Shown here: in pieces, positions 1,718 to 11,811 of the stretch
Layout: each line of letters opens with the position of its first letter
Numbering within the stretch: position 1 is the stretch's first letter
Origin: a virus
UHGV virus genome: UHGV-0365212
Length of the DNA: 13,094 nt
Reading direction: 5' to 3' (one strand)
Notes under the pieces: generated by a model
The model's input: only the letters and a program-made list of their open reading frames with translations
Database searches by the model: none
Told to the model about the DNA's origin: nothing
Translations under genes and position numbers: made by a program

Positions 1718-2014
1718 TTATACCTCTGAATCAATATCAACCTGGTGGTGAGCAATGGTTTCAACCATGTACCGGATGTGTTCCGCCATGCGCTCCTGAA
1801 ACTCAACATCGTCATCAAATGCACGGGTAATGGCTTTTTTGCTGGCCCCGTGGCGTTGCAAATGATCGATGCATAGCGATTCAAACAGGTGCTGGGGCAG
1901 GCCTTTTTCCATGTCGTCTGCCAGTTCTGCCTCTTTCTCTTCACGGGCGATCTGCTGGTAGTGACGCGCCCAGCTCTGAGCCTCAAGACGATCCTGAATG
2001 TAATAAGCGTTCAT
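1718..2014 (-). CDS. gam: lambda Gam, RecBCD inhibitor; only the 98-aa short form (GamS) is encoded because the upstream long-form start is lost at a deletion junction
   Basis: Translation [44 protein letters not shown]...[10 protein letters not shown] matches recalled lambda Gam C-terminal 98 aa; AGGAG Shine-Dalgarno 7 nt upstream of the ATG; lambda-like 5' sequence persists only to about position 2090. Confidence 0.9.
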
Positions 2015-2350
2015 GGCTGAACTCCTGAAAATGGCTGTGAAAATATCGCCCGCGAAATGCCAGGCTGATTAGGAAAACAGGAAAGGGGATTAGTGATTGA
2101 GGCCGTTACCGCGTCCGTCGAGAAAAACTTCCACGAGCAAATCACGGGTATAAGTGCGCTCGATGCCGCGATGCAGATAAAGCCGTCCGCGTAAATTAGC
2201 TGATGCAGTCCAGGTACCGGATACTGAAAAATTACGCCAAAACGCTGACAGTAACAGGCGTATGAAGTCAGAGATAACGACCGGTTGATACCGTTTTATT
2301 GATTTTTGCTGGCAATTGTCATGCTGGTCTGATTTTTGTGGAGAAAGTTG

Positions 2351-2734
2351 ATGCGTGATATTCAGATGGTTCTTGAGCGTTGGGGGGCATGGGCGGCTAA
2401 TAACCATGAGGATGTGACCTGGTCGTCCATTGCTGCCGGTTTTAAGGGATTGCTTCCTTCAAAAGTAAAATCCCGTCCGCAATGCTGTGATGATGACGCG
2501 ATGATCGTTTGCGGGTGCATGGCCCGTCTGAAAAAGAACAACAGCGATTTGCACGATTTATTAGTGGATTATTATGTCGGCGGTATGACATTCATGTCAC
2601 TGGCAAGTAAGCATCGTTGCTCTGATGGTTATATCGGGAAAAAGTTACAGAAGGCTGAGGGAATAATTGAAGGGATGTTAATGGCATTAGATATCCGGTT
2701 AGAGATGGATATCGTTGTTAATAACTCTAATTAA
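2351..2734 (+). CDS. Q: late-gene antiterminator Q, short phage-21/DLP12 QuuD-like type (127 aa)
   Basis: ATG at 2351 preceded by GGAGA with 7-nt spacer (the ORF-track start at 2336 is a TTG); product [26 protein letters not shown]...[16 protein letters not shown] is Cys-rich and resembles the short Q family as I recall it; positioned just upstream of a porin/lysis module as in DLP12-type prophages. Confidence 0.7.
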
Positions 2735-2751
2735 TACGCCAATTATTTACT

Positions 2752-2785
2752 AAAAGTTATTAAAAATGGGGCGTTGAAACGCCCC
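2752..2785 (-). terminator. candidate intrinsic terminator for the porin gene (minus strand)
   Basis: GC-rich hairpin GGGGCG-ttgaaa-CGCCCC at 2768-2785; on the minus strand it is followed by a U-rich tract (AUUUUUAAUAACUUUUA); about 140 nt downstream of the porin stop. Confidence 0.45.
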
Positions 2786-2873
2786 CAAAAATAAAGGGTA
2801 ATATATAACAGAAGGTTTGTATAGTTAGAAGCAAGGTTGTGCTTCTAAAGGAAGTGGCTTGAGGGAGCCACTT

Positions 2874-2915
2874 ATATGTTGGGGAGGCAAAGCCTCCCAC
2901 AACATATCTTTTAGT
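2874..2915 (+). terminator. long imperfect hairpin followed by CUUUU; candidate terminator downstream of Q (tR'-like?)
   Basis: About 15-bp stem ATATGTTGGGGAGGC / GCCTCCC(A)CAACATAT with one bulge and AAA loop, then CTTTTAG on the plus strand. Confidence 0.4.
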
Positions 2916-2922
2916 AATCAAA

Positions 2923-4005
2923 TTAGAACTGGTAAACCATACCTACAGCAACGATATCATCGGTAGCAACGCCAGATGCTTTCGTGAAATCGCTCTTATC
3001 AATCAGGTTGATTTTGTAGTCAACAAAAGTGGACATATTTTTGTTGAAGTAATAGGTTGCACCTACATCAACATATTCAACCAGGTCCTGATCACCCCAA
3101 ACACCCAAGTCTTTTCCTTTAGAATGCAGGTAAGCAACGGATGGACGCAGGCCGAAGTCGAACTGATATTGTGCAACAGCTTCGAAGTTTTGTGCTTTGT
3201 TGGCAATATGGTTATTACCAAAAACAGTCATGTTCTGGGTTTCAGAATAGGTGGTGGCCAGATAGATGTTGTTCGCATCATATTTCAGACCAGCTGCCCA
3301 TACTTCAGCATTTTGACCAGAAGCATTCAGACCGTTGTTACCGTAGATAACCTGATTATTAGTGCGATCAGATTTAGCATAGGTTGCACCCACGCCGAAT
3401 CCTTCATACTCATAAGTAGTTGAGAAACCGAAACCATCGCCATTAGCTTCAGTTACTTCTTTTCGGTCATTTTTGCCCTGATACTGAGCTGCAAAGTTCA
3501 GGCCATCAACCAGACCAAAGAAGTCGTTGTTACGATAAGTTGCAACACCTGTGGTGCGACCAGTCATGAATACATCTGTTTGGGTCCAGGTATCGCCACC
3601 GAATTCTGGCAGAACGTCGGTCCATGCACCAATATCGTATGCTACACCGTAGTTACGGCCATAATCGATGGAGCCGTAGTCACCGAATTTCAGGCCAGCG
3701 AAGGCAAGACGGGTTTTATCTTTGGAGGAACCTTGAGATTCAGCGCGGTTGCCTTTGAATTCATATTCCCACTGACCGAAACCAGTCAGTTGATCGTTGA
3801 TTTGGGTTTCACCTTTGAAGCCAAGACGGGCATAAGTAGTATCACCATCATCTGCATCATTAGAGGAGAAGTAGTGCTTAGCATTAACTTTCCCGTACAG
3901 ATCCAGCTTGTTACTGTCTTTATTATAAATTTCAGCTGCCTGAGCAGACATCGCCATCAGTACTGATGCAGCTACAGCAGAAATTGCCACTGTTAATTTT
4001 TTCAT
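2923..4005 (-). CDS. nmpC: prophage-encoded OmpC/OmpF-family general porin (NmpC/Lc-like), 360 aa with signal peptide
   Basis: Translation starts [30 protein letters not shown] (signal peptide) and ends ...VGMVYQF (C-terminal Phe typical of porin beta-barrels); alternating Tyr/Gly-rich strands; AAGGG RBS; sits between Q and the holin on the opposite strand as nmpC/lc does in DLP12/PA-2-type prophages (from memory). Confidence 0.88.
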
Positions 4006-4434
4006 CGTGAGCCCTTTTTTTTGAACTATTATTAAAAAATGATGTCACTGCGCGATAAATATTCATCTAATCAATGTGATTATTTCAAGATGTAAGTTTT
4101 GGTTTCTCGTTTAATTTGTGAAGTAGATCTCTATTTTTATCTGAACTTTTTTCTATCGAATCCTATTCATGGCTCTTGGCTGAATAAAAATAAATCTATT
4201 AGCCAATTTATATTAATGGCTGTTATTTATAAGCGCTCTATAATTTGAAGGTTCAATTTAAATTGGCTAAAAATAACGCTGGAAATTATTTGTTGGTTAT
4301 TTGTTGAGATTTGCTTATGTATTTGTAGTGGTGTTTTCAATACTCGGTAGCATTCTCGCAAATATCATTTAGTGGTTTACGTACGTAAAAAATTGGTTAT
4401 GCTGTTAAGATTGGTTACTTCGTCACACAGCTTA

Positions 4435-4466
4435 AACCCGCCGTCGAGCGGGTTTTTCCATTTTTT
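4435..4466 (+). terminator. intrinsic terminator-like hairpin about 110 nt upstream of the holin (possible tR'-type element of the late promoter region)
   Basis: AACCCGC-cgtcga-GCGGGTT stem (4435-4454) followed by TTTTT cca TTTTTT. Confidence 0.5.
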
Positions 4467-4578
4467 GAGTCTCGATATTAGCTGATAACCCAATACCTGA
4501 GTTATTCACTGACTCCGAGTCTGTTACGTTTCGTAGTATTCCCTCAATTTACACCCGCTTTGTCTGCGAGGTGGGGTT

Positions 4579-4794
4579 ATGAAATCCATGGATAAGTTAA
4601 CAACGGGTGTCGCCTATGGCACCTCAGCAGGTAGTGCCGGGTACTGGTTTTTACAGCTGCTCGATAAAGTCACGCCCTCACAGTGGGCAGCAATAGGTGT
4701 GCTGGGTAGCCTGGTATTTGGCCTGCTGACGTACCTGACAAACCTTTATTTCAAGATTAAAGAAGATAAGCGCAAGGCTGCGAGAGGTGAATAA
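4579..4794 (+). CDS. S: class II holin, phage-21 S21-type pinholin with dual-start motif (71/68 aa)
   Basis: [26 protein letters not shown]...[13 protein letters not shown]; Met1-Lys2-Ser3-Met4 dual-start arrangement; two predicted TM segments; strong GAGGTGGGG RBS; stop overlaps endolysin start (TAATG). Confidence 0.9.
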
Positions 4795-5951: not shown

Positions 5952-6440
5952 ATGAACCAATTAGAAGAAAAGCTTCAAAGAATGATTTCCTTATACAAGG
6001 AAGATAACTGCCAAAAAGTTCCTGAAAACATCGCAGAGTTAATGGAATTGGCAAGTGAATTTTCTGGCATGCTTAAGTCGTCAGGTGTTCGGTCAGCGTT
6101 CTTTGTTGAAATGCTGATGCACGGCGGACTTATGGCAACAATGAGACGTGTAATGGAAGACCAGAGAAAAGAACCTCCTCAGGTATACGTTTTGTCATCG
6201 AAGAAAACTGGGCTAACCAAAATTGGGTATTCATCCAACATTCCACAACGCATCAAATCGCTTGGCAACTCTGGACCAGACTGCTTGAAGCTTGAGTGCC
6301 TGATCCCTGGTGGAAGAGAAACTGAAAACATGCTTCATCGCAAATTTGCCGCAAAGAGAAAGCACGGTGAATGGTTCGCCCTGTCCAAGGATGACATTGA
6401 GGGATTGAAATCTGTAGCGATTACTTCTGATGGCTATTAA
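5952..6440 (+). CDS. T5orf172/MUG113-domain (GIY-YIG-like fold) protein with an uncharacterised ~75-aa N-terminal region; moron between Rz and cos
   Basis: C-terminal half PQVYVLSSKKTGLTKIGYSSNIPQRIKSLGN...ETENMLHRKFAAKRKHGEWFALSKDDI fits the T5orf172 pattern (hydrophobic-YVL, KIGxT/S, R, E..LH..F, GEWF); ATG 5952 preferred over in-frame GTG 5916; AT-rich relative to flanking phage genes; has its own upstream gap after a terminator. Confidence 0.6.
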   Translation: MNQLEEKLQRMISLYKEDNCQKVPENIAELMELASEFSGMLKSSGVRSAFFVEMLMHGGLMATMRRVMEDQRKEPPQVYVLSSKKTGLTKIGYSSNIPQRIKSLGNSGPDCLKLECLIPGGRETENMLHRKFAAKRKHGEWFALSKDDIEGLKSVAITSDGY

Positions 6441-7586: not shown

Positions 7587-7820
7587 TCAATCTGGTCTGA
7601 CCTGCTTTCTGAGCAATTCAGTAATGTCACTCTTTTCTTTGTTTGCTTCAGGCGAAACTCTTTTTTCTGAGCACAGTCTTCGGCGGCAGGCTTCAATGAC
7701 CCAGGCTGAGAAATTCCCGGACCCTTTTTGATCAAGAGCGATGTTAATTTGTTCAATCATTTGGTTAGGAAAGCGGATGTTGCGGGTTGTTGTTCTGCGG
7801 GTTCTGTTCTTCGTTGACAT
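7587..7820 (-). CDS. small basic protein, YlcI / lambda orf-64-like (DUF3950-type), 77 aa
   Basis: MSTKNRTRRTTTRNIRFPNQMIEQINIALDQKGSGNFSAWVIEACRRRL... resembles the small ORF found just upstream of cos in lambda and DLP12 (ylcI), recalled from memory. Confidence 0.55.
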   Translation of the reverse strand: MSTKNRTRRTTTRNIRFPNQMIEQINIALDQKGSGNFSAWVIEACRRRLCSEKRVSPEANKEKSDITELLRKQVRPD

Positions 7821-8019
7821 GAGGTTGTCCCGTATTCAGTGTCGCTGATTTGTATTGTCTGAAGTTGTTTTTACGTTAAGTTGATGCAGATCAATTAATA
7901 TGATACCTGCGTCATAATTGATTATTTGACGTGGTTTGATGGCGTAGATGCACGTTGTGACATGCAGATGATAATTATTATCATTTTGCGGGTCCTTTCC
8001 GGCGATCCGACAGGTTACG

Positions 8020-8208
8020 GGGCGGCGACCTCGCGGGTTTTCGCTATTTATGAAAATTTTCCGGTTTAAGGTGTTTCCGTTCTTCTTCGTCGTAACTTAA
8101 TGTTTTTATTTAAAATACCCCCTGAAAAGAAAGGAAACGACAGGTGCTGAAAACGGGCTTTTTGGCCTCTGTCGTTTCCTTTCTCTGTTTTTGTCCGTGG
8201 AATGAACA
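8020..8208 (+). other. cos: lambda cohesive-end site: cosN (GGGCGGCGACCT at 8020-8031) followed by the cosB region up to the Nu1 start
   Basis: Sequence ...GACAGGTTACG|GGGCGGCGACCTCGCGGGTTTTCGCTATTTATGAAAATTTTCCGGTTTAAGG... matches the lambda right-end/left-end junction as I recall it, with only scattered substitutions through to the ATG of Nu1. Confidence 0.85.
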
Positions 8209-11145
8209 ATGGAAGTCAACAAAAAGCAGCTGGCTGACATTTTCGGTGCGAGTATCCGTACCATTCAGAACTGGCAGGAGGCTCAGATTGCGTCCATCAG
8301 CCAGAGTGTGGCGCGTTTCTCCTCTGCATCCGGCGTGGAGGTGGACAAGGTCGCTGAAGCCTTCGGGAAGCTGACCACAGAGGGGAATACCAATATCTCC
8401 GGTGTCACGGTGGTGTTCCGGGCCGGTGAGCAGGAGCAGACACCGCCGGAGGGATTTGAATCCTCTGGCTCCGAGACGGTGCTGGGTACGGAAGTGAAAT
8501 ACGACACGCCGATCACCCGGACCATCACGTCGGCAAACATTGACCGTCTGCGTTTTACTTTCGGCGTGCAGGCACTGGTGGAAACCACCTCAAAGGGGGA
8601 CAGGAATCCATCGGAAGTCCGCCTGCTGGTTCAGATACAACGTAACGGTGGCTGGGTGACGGAAAAAGACATCACCATTAAGGGCAAAACCACCTCACAG
8701 TATCTGGCCTCGGTTGTGGTGGATAACCTGCCGCCGCGCCCGTTTAATATCCGGATGCGCAGGATGACGCCGGACAGCACCACAGACCAGCTGCAGAACA
8801 AAACGCTCTGGTCGTCATACACCGAAATTATCGATGTGAAACAGTGCTACCCGAACACGGCACTGGTCGGCGTGCAGGTGGACTCGGAGCAGTTCGGCAG
8901 CCAGCAGGTGAGCCGTAATTATCATCTGCGCGGGCGTATTCTGCAGGTGCCGTCGAATTATAACCCGCAGACGCGGCAATACAGCGGTATCTGGGACGGA
9001 ACGTTTAAACCGGCATACAGCAACAACATGGCCTGGTGTCTGTGGGATATGCTGACCCATCCGCGCTACGGCATGGGGAAACGTCTTGGTGCAGCGGATG
9101 TGGATAAATGGGCGCTGTATGTCATCGGCCAGTACTGCGACCAGTCAGTGCCGGACGGCTTTGGCGGCACGGAACCGCGTATCACCTGTAATGCGTACCT
9201 GACCACACAGCGCAAGGCGTGGGATGTGCTCAGTGATTTCTGCTCGGCGATGCGCTGTATGCCGGTATGGAACGGGCAGACGCTGACGTTCGTGCAGGAC
9301 CGGCCGTCGGATAAGGTGTGGACCTATAACCGCAGTAATGTGGTGATGCCGGATGATGGCGCGCCGTTCCGCTACAGTTTCAGCGCCCTGAAGGACCGCC
9401 ATAATGCCGTTGAGGTGAACTGGATTGACCCGAACAACGGCTGGGAGACGGCGACAGAGCTTGTTGAAGATACGCAGGCCATTGCCCGTTACGGTCGTAA
9501 TGTCACGAAGATGGATGCCTTTGGTTGTACCAGTCGGGGGCAGGCACACCGCGCCGGGCTGTGGCTGATTAAAACGGAACTGCTGGAAACGCAGACCGTG
9601 GACTTCAGCGTGGGTGCTGAAGGGCTTCGCCATGTACCGGGCGATGTCATTGAAATTTGCGATGATGACTATGCCGGTATCAGCATCGGCGGGCGCGTGC
9701 TGGCGGTGAACAGCCAGACCCGGACGCTGACGCTCGACCGTGAAATCACGCTGCCATCTTCCGGCACCACGCTGATAAGCCTGGTTGACGGGCAGGGGAG
9801 TCCGGTCAGCGTGGAGGTCCAGTCCGTCACCGACGGCGTGAAGGTGAAAGTGAGCCGTGTTCCTGACGGCGTTGCAGAATACAGCGTGTGGGGGCTGAAG
9901 CTGCCGACGCTGCGCCAGCGCCTGTTCCGCTGCGTGAGTATCCGTGAGAACGATGACGGCACGTATGCCATCACCGCCGTGCAGCACCTGACTGCCGAAG
10001 TCACCGCAGACAGCGGGGAGTATCAGGTACTGGCCCGCTGGGACACGCCGAAGGTGGTGAAGGGCGTGAGCTTTATGCTTCGCCTGACCGTGGCCGCGGA
10101 TGAAGGCATTGAGCGGCTGGTCAGCACGGCCCGGACGGCGGAAACCACATACCGCTTCACGCAACTGGCGCTGGGGAACTACAGGCTGACAGTCCGGGCA
10201 GTAAATGCCCGGGGACAGCAGGGAGACCCGGCGTCGGTATCGTTCCGGATTGCCGCCCCGGCAGCGCCGTCGCGGATTGAGCTGACACCGGGCTATTTTC
10301 AGATAACCGCCACGCCGCATCTTGCGGTTTATGATCCGACGGTACAGTTTGAGTTCTGGTTCTCGGAAAAGCGGATTGCGGATATCAGGCAGGTTGAAAC
10401 CACAGCCCGCTATCTTGGTACGGCGCTGTACTGGATAGCCGCCAGTATCAATATCAAACCGGGCCATGATTATTACTTTTATATCCGCAGTGTGAACACC
10501 GTTGGCAAATCGGCATTCGTGGAGGCCGTCGGTCGGGCGAGCGATGATGCGGAAGGTTACCTGGATTTTTTCAAAGGCAAGATATTTTCCCTGACATCAG
10601 ACGGAAAGCTGACCGCTAAAAATGCGGATATCAGTGGCAGTGTGAATGCGAACTCAGGGACGCTCAACAATGTCACGATTAATGAGAACTGTCAGATTAA
10701 GGGGAAACTGTCAGCCAACCAGATTGAAGGTGATATTGTCAAAACGGTCAGCAAGTCTTTCCCCCGCACGAACAGTTATGCCAGTGGCACCATCACGGTA
10801 AGAATCAGTGATGATCAGAAATTTGACCGGCAGGTCATGATACCGCCAGTGTTATTCCGCGGTGGTAAGCATGAGAATTTCAACAGTAATAACCAACAGT
10901 CATACTGGTATTCAACCTGCCGGTTAAGAGTGACCCGCAATGGTCAGGAGATTTTTAATCAGTCCACGACGGATGCTCAGGGCGTATTTTCCTCCGTTAT
11001 AGATATGCCTGCCGGACAGGGGACGCTGACACTGACATTCACCGTATCTTCATCAGGAGCGAATAACTGGACACCAACAACCAGTATCAGCGATCTGCTG
11101 GTTGTGGTGATGAAAAAATCCACAGCAGGTATCAGTATCAGCTGA
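8209..11145 (+). CDS. J: in-frame fusion ORF (978 aa): Nu1 residues 1-24, then a ~33-aa segment resembling tape-measure protein H, then tail-tip/host-specificity protein J from about residue 56 to the end; deletion remnant rather than an intact structural gene
   Basis: N-terminus [24 protein letters not shown] equals recalled lambda Nu1; [33 protein letters not shown] matches a motif I recall from lambda gpH; from [26 protein letters not shown] onward the protein tracks lambda J for about 800 residues, with a divergent C-terminal ~230 aa; junctions at about nt 8280 and 8379. Confidence 0.8.
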
Positions 11146-11163
11146 ATTTTATAACCCAGAACG

Positions 11164-11187
11164 GGCGTCAGAAATGACGCCTTTTTT
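11164..11187 (+). terminator. rho-independent terminator between the J remnant and lom
   Basis: GGCGTCA-gaaa-TGACGCC perfect 7-bp stem followed by TTTTTT. Confidence 0.7.
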
Positions 11188-11211
11188 ATTGCAGAAAAGC
11201 GAGAGGTAATT

Positions 11212-11811
11212 ATGCGTAAACTTTATGCCGCCATTTTGTCCGCAGCCATTTGTCTGGCCGTATCCGGTGCGCCTGCATGGGCGTCTGAACATCAGTCCAC
11301 GCTGAGCGCGGGGTATCTTCATGCCCGGACGAACGTTCCCGGCAGTGATGATCTGAACGGGATTAACGTGAAATACCGTTATGAGTTTACGGACACACTG
11401 GGGATGGTGACGTCGTTCAGCTATGCAGGAGACAAGAATCGCCAGCTGACCCGTTACAGCGATACCCGCTGGTATGAAGATTCCGTGCGTAACCGCTGGT
11501 TCAGCGTGATGGCGGGGCCGTCTGTACGCGTGAATGAATGGTTCAGCGCGTATGCGATGGCGGGTGTGGCTTACAGCCGTGTGTCGACTTTTTCCGGGGA
11601 TTATATCCGCGTAACTGACAATAAGGGGAAAACGCACGATGTGCTGACCGGAAGTGATGACGGTCGCCACAGCAACACGTCTCTGGTGTGGGGGGCTGGC
11701 GTGCAGTTTAACCCGACCGAATCCGTGGCCATTGATGTCGCTTATGAAGGCTCCGGCAGTGGTGACTGGCGCACTGACGGGTTCATCGTGGGTGTTGGTT
11801 ATAAATTCTGA
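11212..11811 (+). CDS. lom: Lom, Ail/Lom-family outer-membrane beta-barrel protein (lysogenic conversion), 199 aa
   Basis: Signal peptide MRKLYAAILSAAICLAVSGAPAWA; C-terminal block SVAIDVAYEGSGSGDWRTDGFIVGVGYKF is identical to recalled lambda Lom C-terminus; GAGAGG RBS; located right after J as in lambda. Confidence 0.9.
   Translation: MRKLYAAILSAAICLAVSGAPAWASEHQSTLSAGYLHARTNVPGSDDLNGINVKYRYEFTDTLGMVTSFSYAGDKNRQLTRYSDTRWYEDSVRNRWFSVMAGPSVRVNEWFSAYAMAGVAYSRVSTFSGDYIRVTDNKGKTHDVLTGSDDGRHSNTSLVWGAGVQFNPTESVAIDVAYEGSGSGDWRTDGFIVGVGYKF

Follow-up and report, generated by a model that had tools for sequence, protein, structure and literature searches.

A Nu1-H-J chimeric open reading frame in a DLP12-type prophage of Escherichia coli is probably a young deletion scar

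The window, i.e. the whole stretch of 13,094 nucleotides (virus genome UHGV-0365212) analyzed here, carries between cos and a lom-family gene a long open reading frame (ORF) made of pieces of three lambda genes. Its features are as follows.

7881 to 7894, no strand assigned: perfect FNR-type site, of sequence TTGATGCAGATCAA, 5' of cos
7957 to 7988, plus strand: promoter-like element GTGACA-16-TATCAT (7957-7984), overlapping a Fur-box-like sequence at 7970-7988 (16/19)
8019 to 8020, no strand assigned: cosN, where lambda 48502 meets lambda 1 (window 7658-8019 corresponds to lambda 48141-48502)
8209 to 11145, plus strand: chimeric ORF Nu1'-H'-J' with two J-internal deletions, 978 codons
8209 to 8279, plus strand: Nu1 codons 1-24 with their own start codon and ribosome-binding region (blastn, PF07471, 1J9I)
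8278 to 8279, plus strand: joint 1, where Nu1 (lambda 260-261) and H (lambda 11136-11137) share the 2-bp microhomology GA
8280 to 8381, plus strand: codons 199-232 of H, the tape measure gene, in the H frame (104/104 versus lambda)
8380 to 8381, plus strand: joint 2, where H (lambda 11238-11239) meets J (lambda 15670-15671) at a GA microhomology
8382 to 11145, plus strand: J-derived part, which starts at J residue 57 and ends with J's own stop codon (blastn, Pfam, PDB)
9976 to 9986, plus strand: joint 3, a 96-bp in-frame J deletion at 11-bp direct repeats GC(C/G)GTGCAGCA, each encoding AVQH
10584 to 10585, plus strand: joint 4, a 372-bp in-frame J deletion without microhomology
11212 to 11811, plus strand: intact lom-family outer-membrane protein gene, directly downstream of the ORF

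When the window was compared with lambda (J02459) by blastn, positions 8020-8279 matched lambda 1-261 (98.1%), positions 8278-8381 matched lambda 11136-11239 (104/104 identical), which fall within H (10542-13103), and positions 8370-9986 matched lambda 15660-17276 (95.9%), within J (15505-18903). The cos region is unbroken and contiguous, as a prophage would show, and the ATG at 8209 corresponds to lambda 191, directly 3' of cos, where Nu1 is expected. The codon phase agrees at joints 1 and 2 and Nu1, H and J are each read in their native frame, the ORF comprising Nu1 residues 1-24, H residues 199/200-232 and J from residue 56/57 onwards. In a PDB sequence search, ORF residues 1-27 matched Nu1 (1J9I, 7LW0), residues 23-75 gpH (8IYK_H 198-250) and residues 53-604 gpJ (8IYK_J). 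Altogether, these data bear out the preliminary description, which had seen three pieces joined in frame within a single 978-codon ORF and had attributed the middle one to H. Since the pieces follow each other in the collinear order Nu1 < H < J on a single strand, plain deletions are enough to account for their arrangement. The 978-aa protein has a RefSeq/GenBank record, WP_375686951.1, under the name 'host specificity protein J'; a search of its first 130 residues against a set of 5.8 billion proteins returned short J fragments only and no known chimera.

In lambda coordinates, joint 1 removes 10,876 bp and joint 2 removes 4,432 bp, so that about 15.3 kb are missing between the pieces rather than the 20 kb or so initially estimated. 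Joint 2 is surrounded by a 9/12 imperfect repeat (GCTGACCACAGA versus GCTGGACACTGA). The two in-frame junctions first noticed are thus real, but the J part holds two more, joints 3 and 4, which we defined against the 99.7-100% identical intact J of E. coli LWY6. Joint 3 was present in none of 5,426 complete E. coli genomes. The deletion at joint 4 takes out the whole Phage_Tail_Tip domain (PF09327), and its left end, lambda 17970 (AAGATA^), also breaks in the unrelated contig L045.

One would wonder whether such a chimera is an artefact of metagenome assembly, or whether its middle segment is just the native N-terminus of a variant J. The window is indeed a 13-kb contig of a gut-type metagenome (ERZ27281633 k141_1353), and the several similar lambdoid prophages of an E. 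coli genome can mislead assemblers. However, a search with the exact 401-bp joint region found the Nu1/H/J joint in 10 of the 5,426 complete genomes, and at least 8 contigs of independently made assemblies encode the exact 978-aa protein, which rules out an artefact; the identical ORF occurs in the isolate assemblies GCA_037287345.1, GCA_003291255.1 and GCA_002207185.1 and in one Logan assembly. A variant J is ruled out as well, since the segment is lambda H over its entire length and in the H frame, and the 55 residues with which intact J alleles begin are different ones. We thus give next to no credit to either explanation.

The prophage at this locus is a defective lambdoid one of the DLP12 type, located at the E. 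coli tRNA-Arg gene argU. All ten complete genomes with the joint have it at argU, in the arrangement argU-intD ... appY-ompT. Contig L015, which does not differ from the window for 6 kb on the upstream side and 4.8 kb on the downstream side, shows the tRNA-Arg(TCT) gene at 219-295 followed by the integrase gene at 311-1474. The carrier lineage with an open ORF was found on four continents and in several hosts. The prophage has lost essential particle genes, A through I being absent and H and J fragmentary. DLP12 of K-12 is likewise devoid of morphogenesis genes, with a deletion that begins just past cos. Its nu1 is reported to be functional in lambda (PMC3945230). The two prophages share tRNA-Arg(TCT) and integrase upstream, appY and ompT downstream, and a backbone consisting of a Q-type antiterminator, an opposite-strand porin, holin-lysozyme-Rz, DUF1398 and YlcI genes, cos and a Nu1 homologue. 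The order in K-12 is intD ... quuD, nmpC, essD-rrrD-rzpD, ybcV, ylcI, cos, nohD, truncated A, tfaD, appY, ompT, with nohD of full length and the deletion beginning within gene A. In the window, by contrast, Nu1 ends with codon 24, from which the frame runs on into the H and J pieces. Unlike DLP12, the window prophage also retains exo-bet-gam, an intact porin, lom and stf, whereas its immunity and replication genes are wholly deleted, lambda 33196 now abutting the ylcG/quuD region.

In lambda itself, Nu1 lacks a promoter and is transcribed from pR'. The native promoter-proximal start that had been proposed for the ORF is correct only in part, although three regulatory-looking sites do lie 5' of cos. 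Promoter and terminator scans of 2000-4650 gave no convincing candidate for pR'. The promoter-like element is possibly a weak local promoter, about 225 nt 5' of the ATG; such sites are no more numerous in this region than in shuffled sequence. The FNR-type site TTGATGCAGATCAA is identical to the FNR target upstream of K-12 nohA/nohB (PMC1802558), and DLP12 has the same FNR and Fur sites 5' of its Nu1 homologue (PMC1802558, PMC2189734). In K-12, the region upstream of nohA/nohB is bound by FNR and Fur and showed low promoter::lacZ activity (PMC1802558, PMC2189734). As the predicted FNR, Fur and promoter-like sites are conserved upstream of the ORF, it could still be expressed.

What would the product be able to do? 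The Nu1 part comprises 24 of the 68 residues of the N-terminal winged helix-turn-helix DNA-binding domain (1J9I 1-68) and matches positions 1-29 of the 164 in the Nu1 family profile (PF07471). Nu1 is a protein of 181 aa that includes self-association and gpA-binding regions. The H part is limited to codons 199-232 of the 853-aa gpH. The J-derived part keeps the FNIII-A, Phage-tail_3, Ig_J, Ig_J_second and C-terminal receptor-binding domains; compared with the complete gpJ/TipJ domain set, for which intact LWY6 J served as reference, it is missing 55 residues at its start, some 32 residues leading up to and into Ig_J, and PF09327 in its entirety. The predicted chimeric product would be without what each parent protein requires and is most likely functionless. 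In some genomes, such long chimeric ORFs are annotated as intact 'TipJ family' or 'host specificity protein J'. Such annotations call for caution, since chance alone can leave the frame of a very young scar open over this length.

That the deletions are recent, as had been suggested, is clear from the comparison with LWY6. At the same chromosomal site this strain has an intact 1,132-aa J, to which the J part of the window is 100% identical over 1,607 bp, together with intact lom and stf and a separate Nu1->L deletion of its own; overall, 3 positions differ in about 4.7 kb. Among 15 near-identical loci we found 3 synonymous and 1 non-synonymous SNPs. The corresponding protein cluster contains five single-residue variants and a frameshifted 353-aa form, as well as members of 190 aa and 213 aa. 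The carriers are almost identical, which makes a dN/dS analysis of the J part impossible; being nearly clonal, they render the open frame uninformative on selection. Decay has gone further in this lineage. In the complete genomes with the joint, additional loss has left an 840-codon Nu1'-H'-J'-Stf' ORF, for which J was fused to stf by one deletion and 1,083 bp of stf were removed by another; the genomes with this form have also lost the Q gene and the lysis region. In F138, an additional out-of-frame deletion shortens the product to 353 aa. The lineage thus displays a graded decay series of 978 aa, 840 aa and 353 aa.

Two junctions that both preserve the frame had been given a probability of 1 in 9, which is too small. 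In lambda late genes, GA dinucleotides fall in the same codon phase in 44% of cases, and since joints 1 and 2 both lie on GA, the chance that both are in frame is about 1 in 5. More generally, a microhomology joint between two coding sequences preserves the frame with a frequency of 37-56% instead of 33%, and the probability of a phase match increases with microhomology length. These figures are relevant wherever in-frame deletions are taken as a sign of selection. The joints are in frame in 4 cases out of 4 in the 978-codon ORF and in 6 out of 6 in its 840-aa sister form; for the former we estimate a chance of roughly 0.04 (0.44 x 0.44 x ~0.6 x 0.33), which would carry some weight against pure chance if ascertainment were left aside. 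Related junctions found afterwards were in frame in 3 cases out of 6. Other Nu1 fusions numbered about 18 in frame against about 13 out of frame, a biased count since short-tailed out-of-frame products, which cluster with normal Nu1 or give no tblastn match, were missed. Allowing for these missed products, the in-frame share among dozens of Nu1 fusions is compatible with one third.

We propose that the ORF is, in all likelihood, a young deletion scar, open by chance, in a decaying DLP12-type prophage. A lambda-like prophage inserted beside tRNA-Arg argU, the DLP12 site, would have lost its head genes and most of its tail genes by illegitimate recombination at 2-bp GA microhomologies, either through two successive deletions or in a single event of replication template switching that made two jumps. 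The Nu1 start, a 102-bp H island and J from codon 57 would have been left behind, and two further small deletions would later have occurred within J. The frame would have been kept at the four junctions by chance, all the more easily because coding-coding microhomologies are in phase more than one time in three, and no stop codon would have arisen because very little time has elapsed. Any transcription would be either late-operon read-through or initiated 5' of cos, at a weak FNR/Fur-associated promoter. As to the two routes, it is conceivable, and we say so tentatively, that Nu1/H/J was made in one complex event, by serial microhomology-primed template switches (MMBIR/FoSTeS) with the H island copied between jumps, along the lines of the published MMBIR model (PMC2621351). 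Joints 1 and 2 have the 2-bp microhomology GA in common, the H island is very short, collinear and 100% identical to lambda H, and none of the genomes in our collection has just one of joints 1 and 2. Comparable patchworks exist in other strains; that of L021, for example, consists of Nu1, Z-U-V', a similar island of 151 bp from T with a joint on either side, and tfa. On the other hand, two successive deletions with an unsampled intermediate would look alike, and stepwise decay is directly visible in the lineage, from 978 to 840 to 353 aa.

A quite different explanation would be that selection maintains the open frame, from the Nu1 start to a native tail-gene stop, through successive deletions. 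The chimera could be useful to the host, for instance in an anti-phage or receptor-blocking role via the J receptor-binding domain or the Stf C-terminus; alternatively, unbroken translation could shield the downstream genes lom, stf and tfa from Rho-dependent polarity. Besides the unbroken run of in-frame joints in both forms, this idea can draw on an ORF end that is always a native stop (of J or stf), on the wide geographical range of the carriers, on a J receptor-binding domain and a Stf C-terminus that are whole, on the predicted FNR, Fur and promoter-like elements upstream (PMC1802558, PMC2189734), and on the precedent of StfE2, a chimeric cryptic-prophage tail-fibre protein reported to block T2 adsorption (PMC12529663). 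However, no constraint is seen in the sequence, be it in the SNPs or in the five single-residue protein variants, half of the independent related junctions are out of frame, and the ORF was chosen for its length, which is a source of ascertainment. For a receptor blocker, neither a signal peptide nor a means of export was noticed. Furthermore, the loss of the Q gene and lysis region from the 840-aa genomes and the weak activity of the cloned nohA/B promoter in K-12 also speak against selection, which we regard as very unlikely. The retention of an expressed chimeric protein, which the preliminary description had offered as an alternative to a recent deletion, is therefore unsupported, given the frame lost in F138, the 3/6 related junctions in frame and the loss of parental domains.

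A parallel can be drawn between this presumed deletion scar and StfE2 from e14, likewise a chimeric cryptic-prophage tail ORF whose receptor-recognition end is kept. StfE2 is made by a PinQ-driven inversion within the cryptic prophage and is a reported blocker of phage T2 adsorption (PMC12529663). It thus stems from a reversible site-specific inversion and has experimental support, whereas the window ORF would stem from irreversible illegitimate deletions. Related cases are the other Nu1-fusion pseudogenes of defective lambdoid prophages, such as that of the Qin nohA region and numerous variants of 185-312 aa that RefSeq names 'terminase small subunit' or 'DNA-packaging protein'. These likewise keep the Nu1 start, which is joined with 0-4 bp of microhomology to fragments of A, B, C, E, FI, FII, Z/U, V, K, I, J, lom or tfa, giving products in frame and out of frame. 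The window ORF differs from them by its internal H island and its much greater length, and also by its point of departure from Nu1, which is lambda 261 (residue 24) instead of lambda 697-699 (residue 169-170) as in most of them. Taken alone, it is one more example of lambdoid prophage decay.

Many defective prophages reveal a nucleotide-sharp deletion hot spot at lambda 697-699, just 5' of gene A, at GATACCGGGG. Breaks at this point were seen at three different chromosomal prophage sites and are used from both sides. The hot spot is not a natural module boundary, as functional phages are continuous across lambda 697, nor a palindrome or hairpin, none being present (fold z = +0.4), and selection alone is rejected for a break that is 3 nt sharp and two-sided. 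Judged by eye only, the resemblance to Chi, to ^CCNGG restriction sites, to cosN (TTACG^GGGCGG versus ATACC^GGGG) or to gix/hix cores (AAACC-NN-GGTTT versus ATACC-GG-GGTTG) is in no case close enough to account for the joints with any assurance. The hot spot would point to a new site-specific DNA break driving lambdoid prophage decay; if it does reflect a specific nick or break, it would go some way towards explaining how prophages become disarmed, and it may be of more consequence than the ORF itself.

The chimeric open reading frame is present as first described, with 978 codons at window positions 8209-11145 (+). When the window was compared with lambda (J02459) by blastn, the region of this ORF was found to be made up of three collinear lambda pieces:

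8020-8279, lambda 1-261, 98.1% identity: cos left end, cosB and the first 71 nt of Nu1
8278-8381, lambda 11136-11239, 104/104 identical: piece inside the tape-measure gene H
8370-9986, lambda 15660-17276, 95.9% identity: piece inside J

To the left of 8020, the window runs on as lambda 48141-48502, which adjoins lambda 1 at this position, and cos is thus intact and contiguous, as in a prophage. The codon phase is the same on either side of the Nu1/H and H/J joints, and a GA dinucleotide common to both parents is observed at each of them (8278-8279 and 8380-8381). The H/J joint lies within a 9/12 imperfect repeat where Leu, Thr and Asp/Glu codons are in register. The predicted product consists of residues 1-24 of Nu1, 199/200-232 of H and then J from residue 56/57. 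A PDB sequence search agrees on the three parts, Nu1 (1J9I/7LW0), gpH and gpJ (lambda tail structure 8IYK). Altogether, blastn, codon phases and PDB search bear out the composition, coordinates and peptide strings of the preliminary description, although the missing DNA, put there at about 20 kb, amounts to 15.3 kb in lambda coordinates. The chimeric ORF does not count as an intact Nu1, gpH or gpJ family member: it keeps only 24 residues out of the 68 in the Nu1 DNA-binding domain and 34 residues of a tape measure of about 850, and its J share is devoid of the N-terminus and of one whole domain. Opposite the J part lies an antisense ORF of 440 codons (9145-10467, -), which is probably open by chance in this GC-rich coding DNA.

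The window is an ENA metagenome contig, and at least eight contigs, three of them E. coli isolate assemblies, encode the exact 978-aa protein. One of these contigs, L015, does not differ from the window over 6 kb on the upstream side and 4.8 kb on the downstream side; with tRNA-Arg(TCT) and an integrase at its left end, it lies at the argU/DLP12 site. The genes follow in the order int, DUF4222, exo, bet, gam, [immunity/replication deleted], Q-type antiterminator, porin (opposite strand), holin, lysozyme, Rz, GIY-YIG/T5orf172, DUF1398, YlcI, cos, chimeric ORF, lom and stf. Intact genes among these include:

5952-6440 (+): GIY-YIG/T5orf172-type gene, between Rz and cos
2923-4005 (-): 360-aa porin gene, between the Q-type gene and the holin

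The window prophage is a DLP12-family defective prophage with a private deletion pattern. A second large deletion, at about 2099-2351, has brought lambda 33196, at the kil end just beyond gam, next to the ylcG/quuD region; kil, cIII, N, repressor, cro, cII, O, P and nin genes were lost, leaving the Red genes and a Q-type antiterminator with neither repressor nor early promoters. As for DLP12 remnants in general, De Paepe et al. have shown that lambda can recombine with DLP12 across cos/nu1 (PMC3945230), so that remnants double as phage spare parts, whether the frame is open or not.

At the same chromosomal site, E. coli strain LWY6 carries an intact J of 1,132 aa with lom and stf. The window J part is 100% identical to this allele over 1,607 bp, then 99.7% and 99.96%, and displays two additional deletions, each a multiple of three:

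9976-9986: 96-bp deletion in J, between 11-bp direct repeats both coding AVQH
10584/10585: 372-bp deletion in J, without microhomology

The latter removes the whole Phage_Tail_Tip domain PF09327. Neither deletion was found in any complete E. coli genome; the best matches there to this stretch are all three-piece and span the extra 468 bp.

Ordinary illegitimate recombination fits the collinear order, the single strand and the 2-bp microhomologies. The Nu1/H and H/J joints could have arisen through two successive deletions or through one template-switching event with two jumps (MMBIR-type, PMC2621351); both fit the data equally. No genome with just one of the two joints was found among 5,426 complete E. 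coli genomes. In this prophage family, short islands are repeatedly kept between deletions, as illustrated by L021, an argU/DLP12-site remnant (GCA_047311825.1, 3001-4716) composed of Nu1 (1-697), Z'-U-V' (8514-9215), a 151-bp T island (10175-10325) and tfa (22250-).

The exact Nu1/H/J joint is carried by ten of these 5,426 genomes, in every case at argU and upstream of appY and ompT. These strains originate from China, Singapore, Ecuador, the USA and France, and were obtained from pigs, birds, humans and river water. In the ten, the left half of the prophage is gone via IS3-associated loss, a deletion links J at window 8865 with stf at window 12153 and 1,083 bp are deleted within stf. Both of the latter deletions keep the frame, giving 840 codons from the Nu1 ATG to the native stf stop, an ORF that PGAP labels as an intact 'TipJ family' protein in M37H and as pseudogene pieces in other genomes. 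In isolate F138, an additional 1,450-bp deletion breaks the frame (353 aa). The nuclease-like GIY-YIG/T5orf172 gene survives even in the most decayed relatives (WP_016245257.1, most of the ten). The 42.7-kb L007 (NZ_OY754386.1, 'plasmid pF138-4') is labelled a circular plasmid, yet the ordinary chromosomal genes pheP, ybdG, nfsB, ompT and nfrA flank its DLP12 remnant. The record probably represents a piece of the chromosome wrongly assigned during assembly, or possibly a circle that had been excised. The 978-aa ORF is identical in five assemblies and has one third-codon-position change in a sixth, and nine complete genomes show two synonymous changes and one non-synonymous change at the locus. 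The carriers are near-clonal and the ORF is nearly the same as intact alleles; there has thus been too little time for stop codons, and there are too few changes for dN/dS.

Lambda Nu1 is transcribed solely from pR' under Q antitermination. The window keeps a Q-type gene (2351-2734) whose driving early promoters are deleted, and the 840-aa genomes have lost the Q gene and the lysis region too. Just left of cos lie three regulatory-looking sites:

7881-7894: perfect FNR site
7957-7984: 10/12 promoter-like site
7970-7988: Fur-box-like sequence, overlapping the promoter-like site

FNR binding to the equivalent region upstream of K-12 nohA/nohB has been shown both in vivo and in vitro, and the promoter::lacZ activity of this region was low (PMC1802558); Fur binds it too (PMC2189734). 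On the basis of these sites and binding data, low-level transcription of the chimeric ORF is plausible.

One would wonder whether the open frame means anything. The preliminary description set the odds of both joints being in frame at about 1 in 9 and proposed either a recent deletion or a retained, expressed chimera. However, GA dinucleotides in lambda late genes are in phase with one another with probability 0.44 (for shared k-mers in general, the value rises from 0.35 at 1 nt to 0.56 at 6 nt), which brings these odds to about 1 in 5. For all four joints our product is about 1 in 25 (0.44 x 0.44 x ~0.6 x 0.33), which is unremarkable since many prophage remnants exist and the ORF was noticed for its length. 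Related junctions found later are in frame in three cases out of six:

J/stf junction, 840-aa form: in frame
stf 1,083-bp deletion, 840-aa form: in frame
LWY6 Nu1(695) to L(13502): in frame
F138 1,450-bp deletion: out of frame
Qin-site Nu1(583) to J(15670), strain 160-11H1: out of frame
Qin-site Nu1(697) to J(15685), strain 17MR471: out of frame

A wider search with Nu1 returned fusion products both in and out of frame, in numbers that agree with an in-frame third if hidden short-tailed products are taken into account. Youth, expected odds, later junctions, this wider sample and the incomplete product argue that frame preservation is not meaningful. A recent deletion is supported by the near-clonal carriers and by the almost complete lack of difference from intact alleles. 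On the other hand, we found no evidence for retention of the protein, given the three of six later junctions and the incomplete product. A chimeric protein useful to the host would have a precedent in StfE2, a chimeric tail-fibre protein of a cryptic prophage that has been reported to block adsorption of T2 (PMC12529663), but we hold this to be improbable here. The ORF is an ordinary kind of feature, its unusual in-frame run being adequately explained by chance and ascertainment.

Outside the window, whose Nu1 ends at lambda 261, many unrelated Nu1 fusions break off at lambda 697-699 (CTGATA^CCGGGG), 14 nt before the start of gene A. This break, a nucleotide-sharp deletion hot spot of defective lambdoid prophages, is seen in loci L004, L005, L020, L021, L023, L025-L027, L029-L039, L042-L047, L061 and L133; at the DNA level, it occurs at three chromosomal sites (argU, Qin and the att-lambda side). 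Its left end does not vary, and the right ends spread from A to tfa; in the mirror case L025, A is kept from 698 and cos and Nu1 are lost. Deletion joints in IMG/VR, by lambda position after which the break falls:

682: 0
690: 0
697: 11 contigs (7 joint types)
699: 2
704: 0
712: 0
720: 1

There are thus 13 joints at 697-699 versus 1 at any other tested position in 682-738, with at least 115 contigs intact across the stretch tabulated above. Among complete genomes, lambda 497-897 is not fully covered in about 8% of records, and of five sampled breaks, four fall at lambda 697-701. No boundary was found at 697-699 in functional phages, where the sequence is uninterrupted, and no hairpin at this site. 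Right-hand partners of 697 breaks tend toward microhomology with GATACCGGGG. The simplest idea would be a site-specific nick or break.

A weaker cluster in J, lambda 15670-15690, takes in the window H/J joint. Four independent break points lie here within 20 bp: window 8380-8382 (lambda 15670-15672), L003 9502, L004 9616 and L023 4472, the J fragment of L023 ending at lambda 15690. The Qin Nu1/J joint of 160-11H1 has the same J start nucleotide (+/-1) as the window, and that of 17MR471 lies 15 bp beyond. As single-stranded DNA, this stretch folds better than shuffled sequence (z = -2.6), and it is similar to the Nu1 hot spot (CATATCCGG versus GATACCGG). The 372-bp deletion of the window has its left end at lambda 17970/17971 (AAGATA^ACCG), which is also the right-hand partner of a Nu1-697 deletion in L045, an unrelated IMG/VR contig, and GATA precedes several more break points (lambda T 10325, J 17305 and stf in L006 at 11506).
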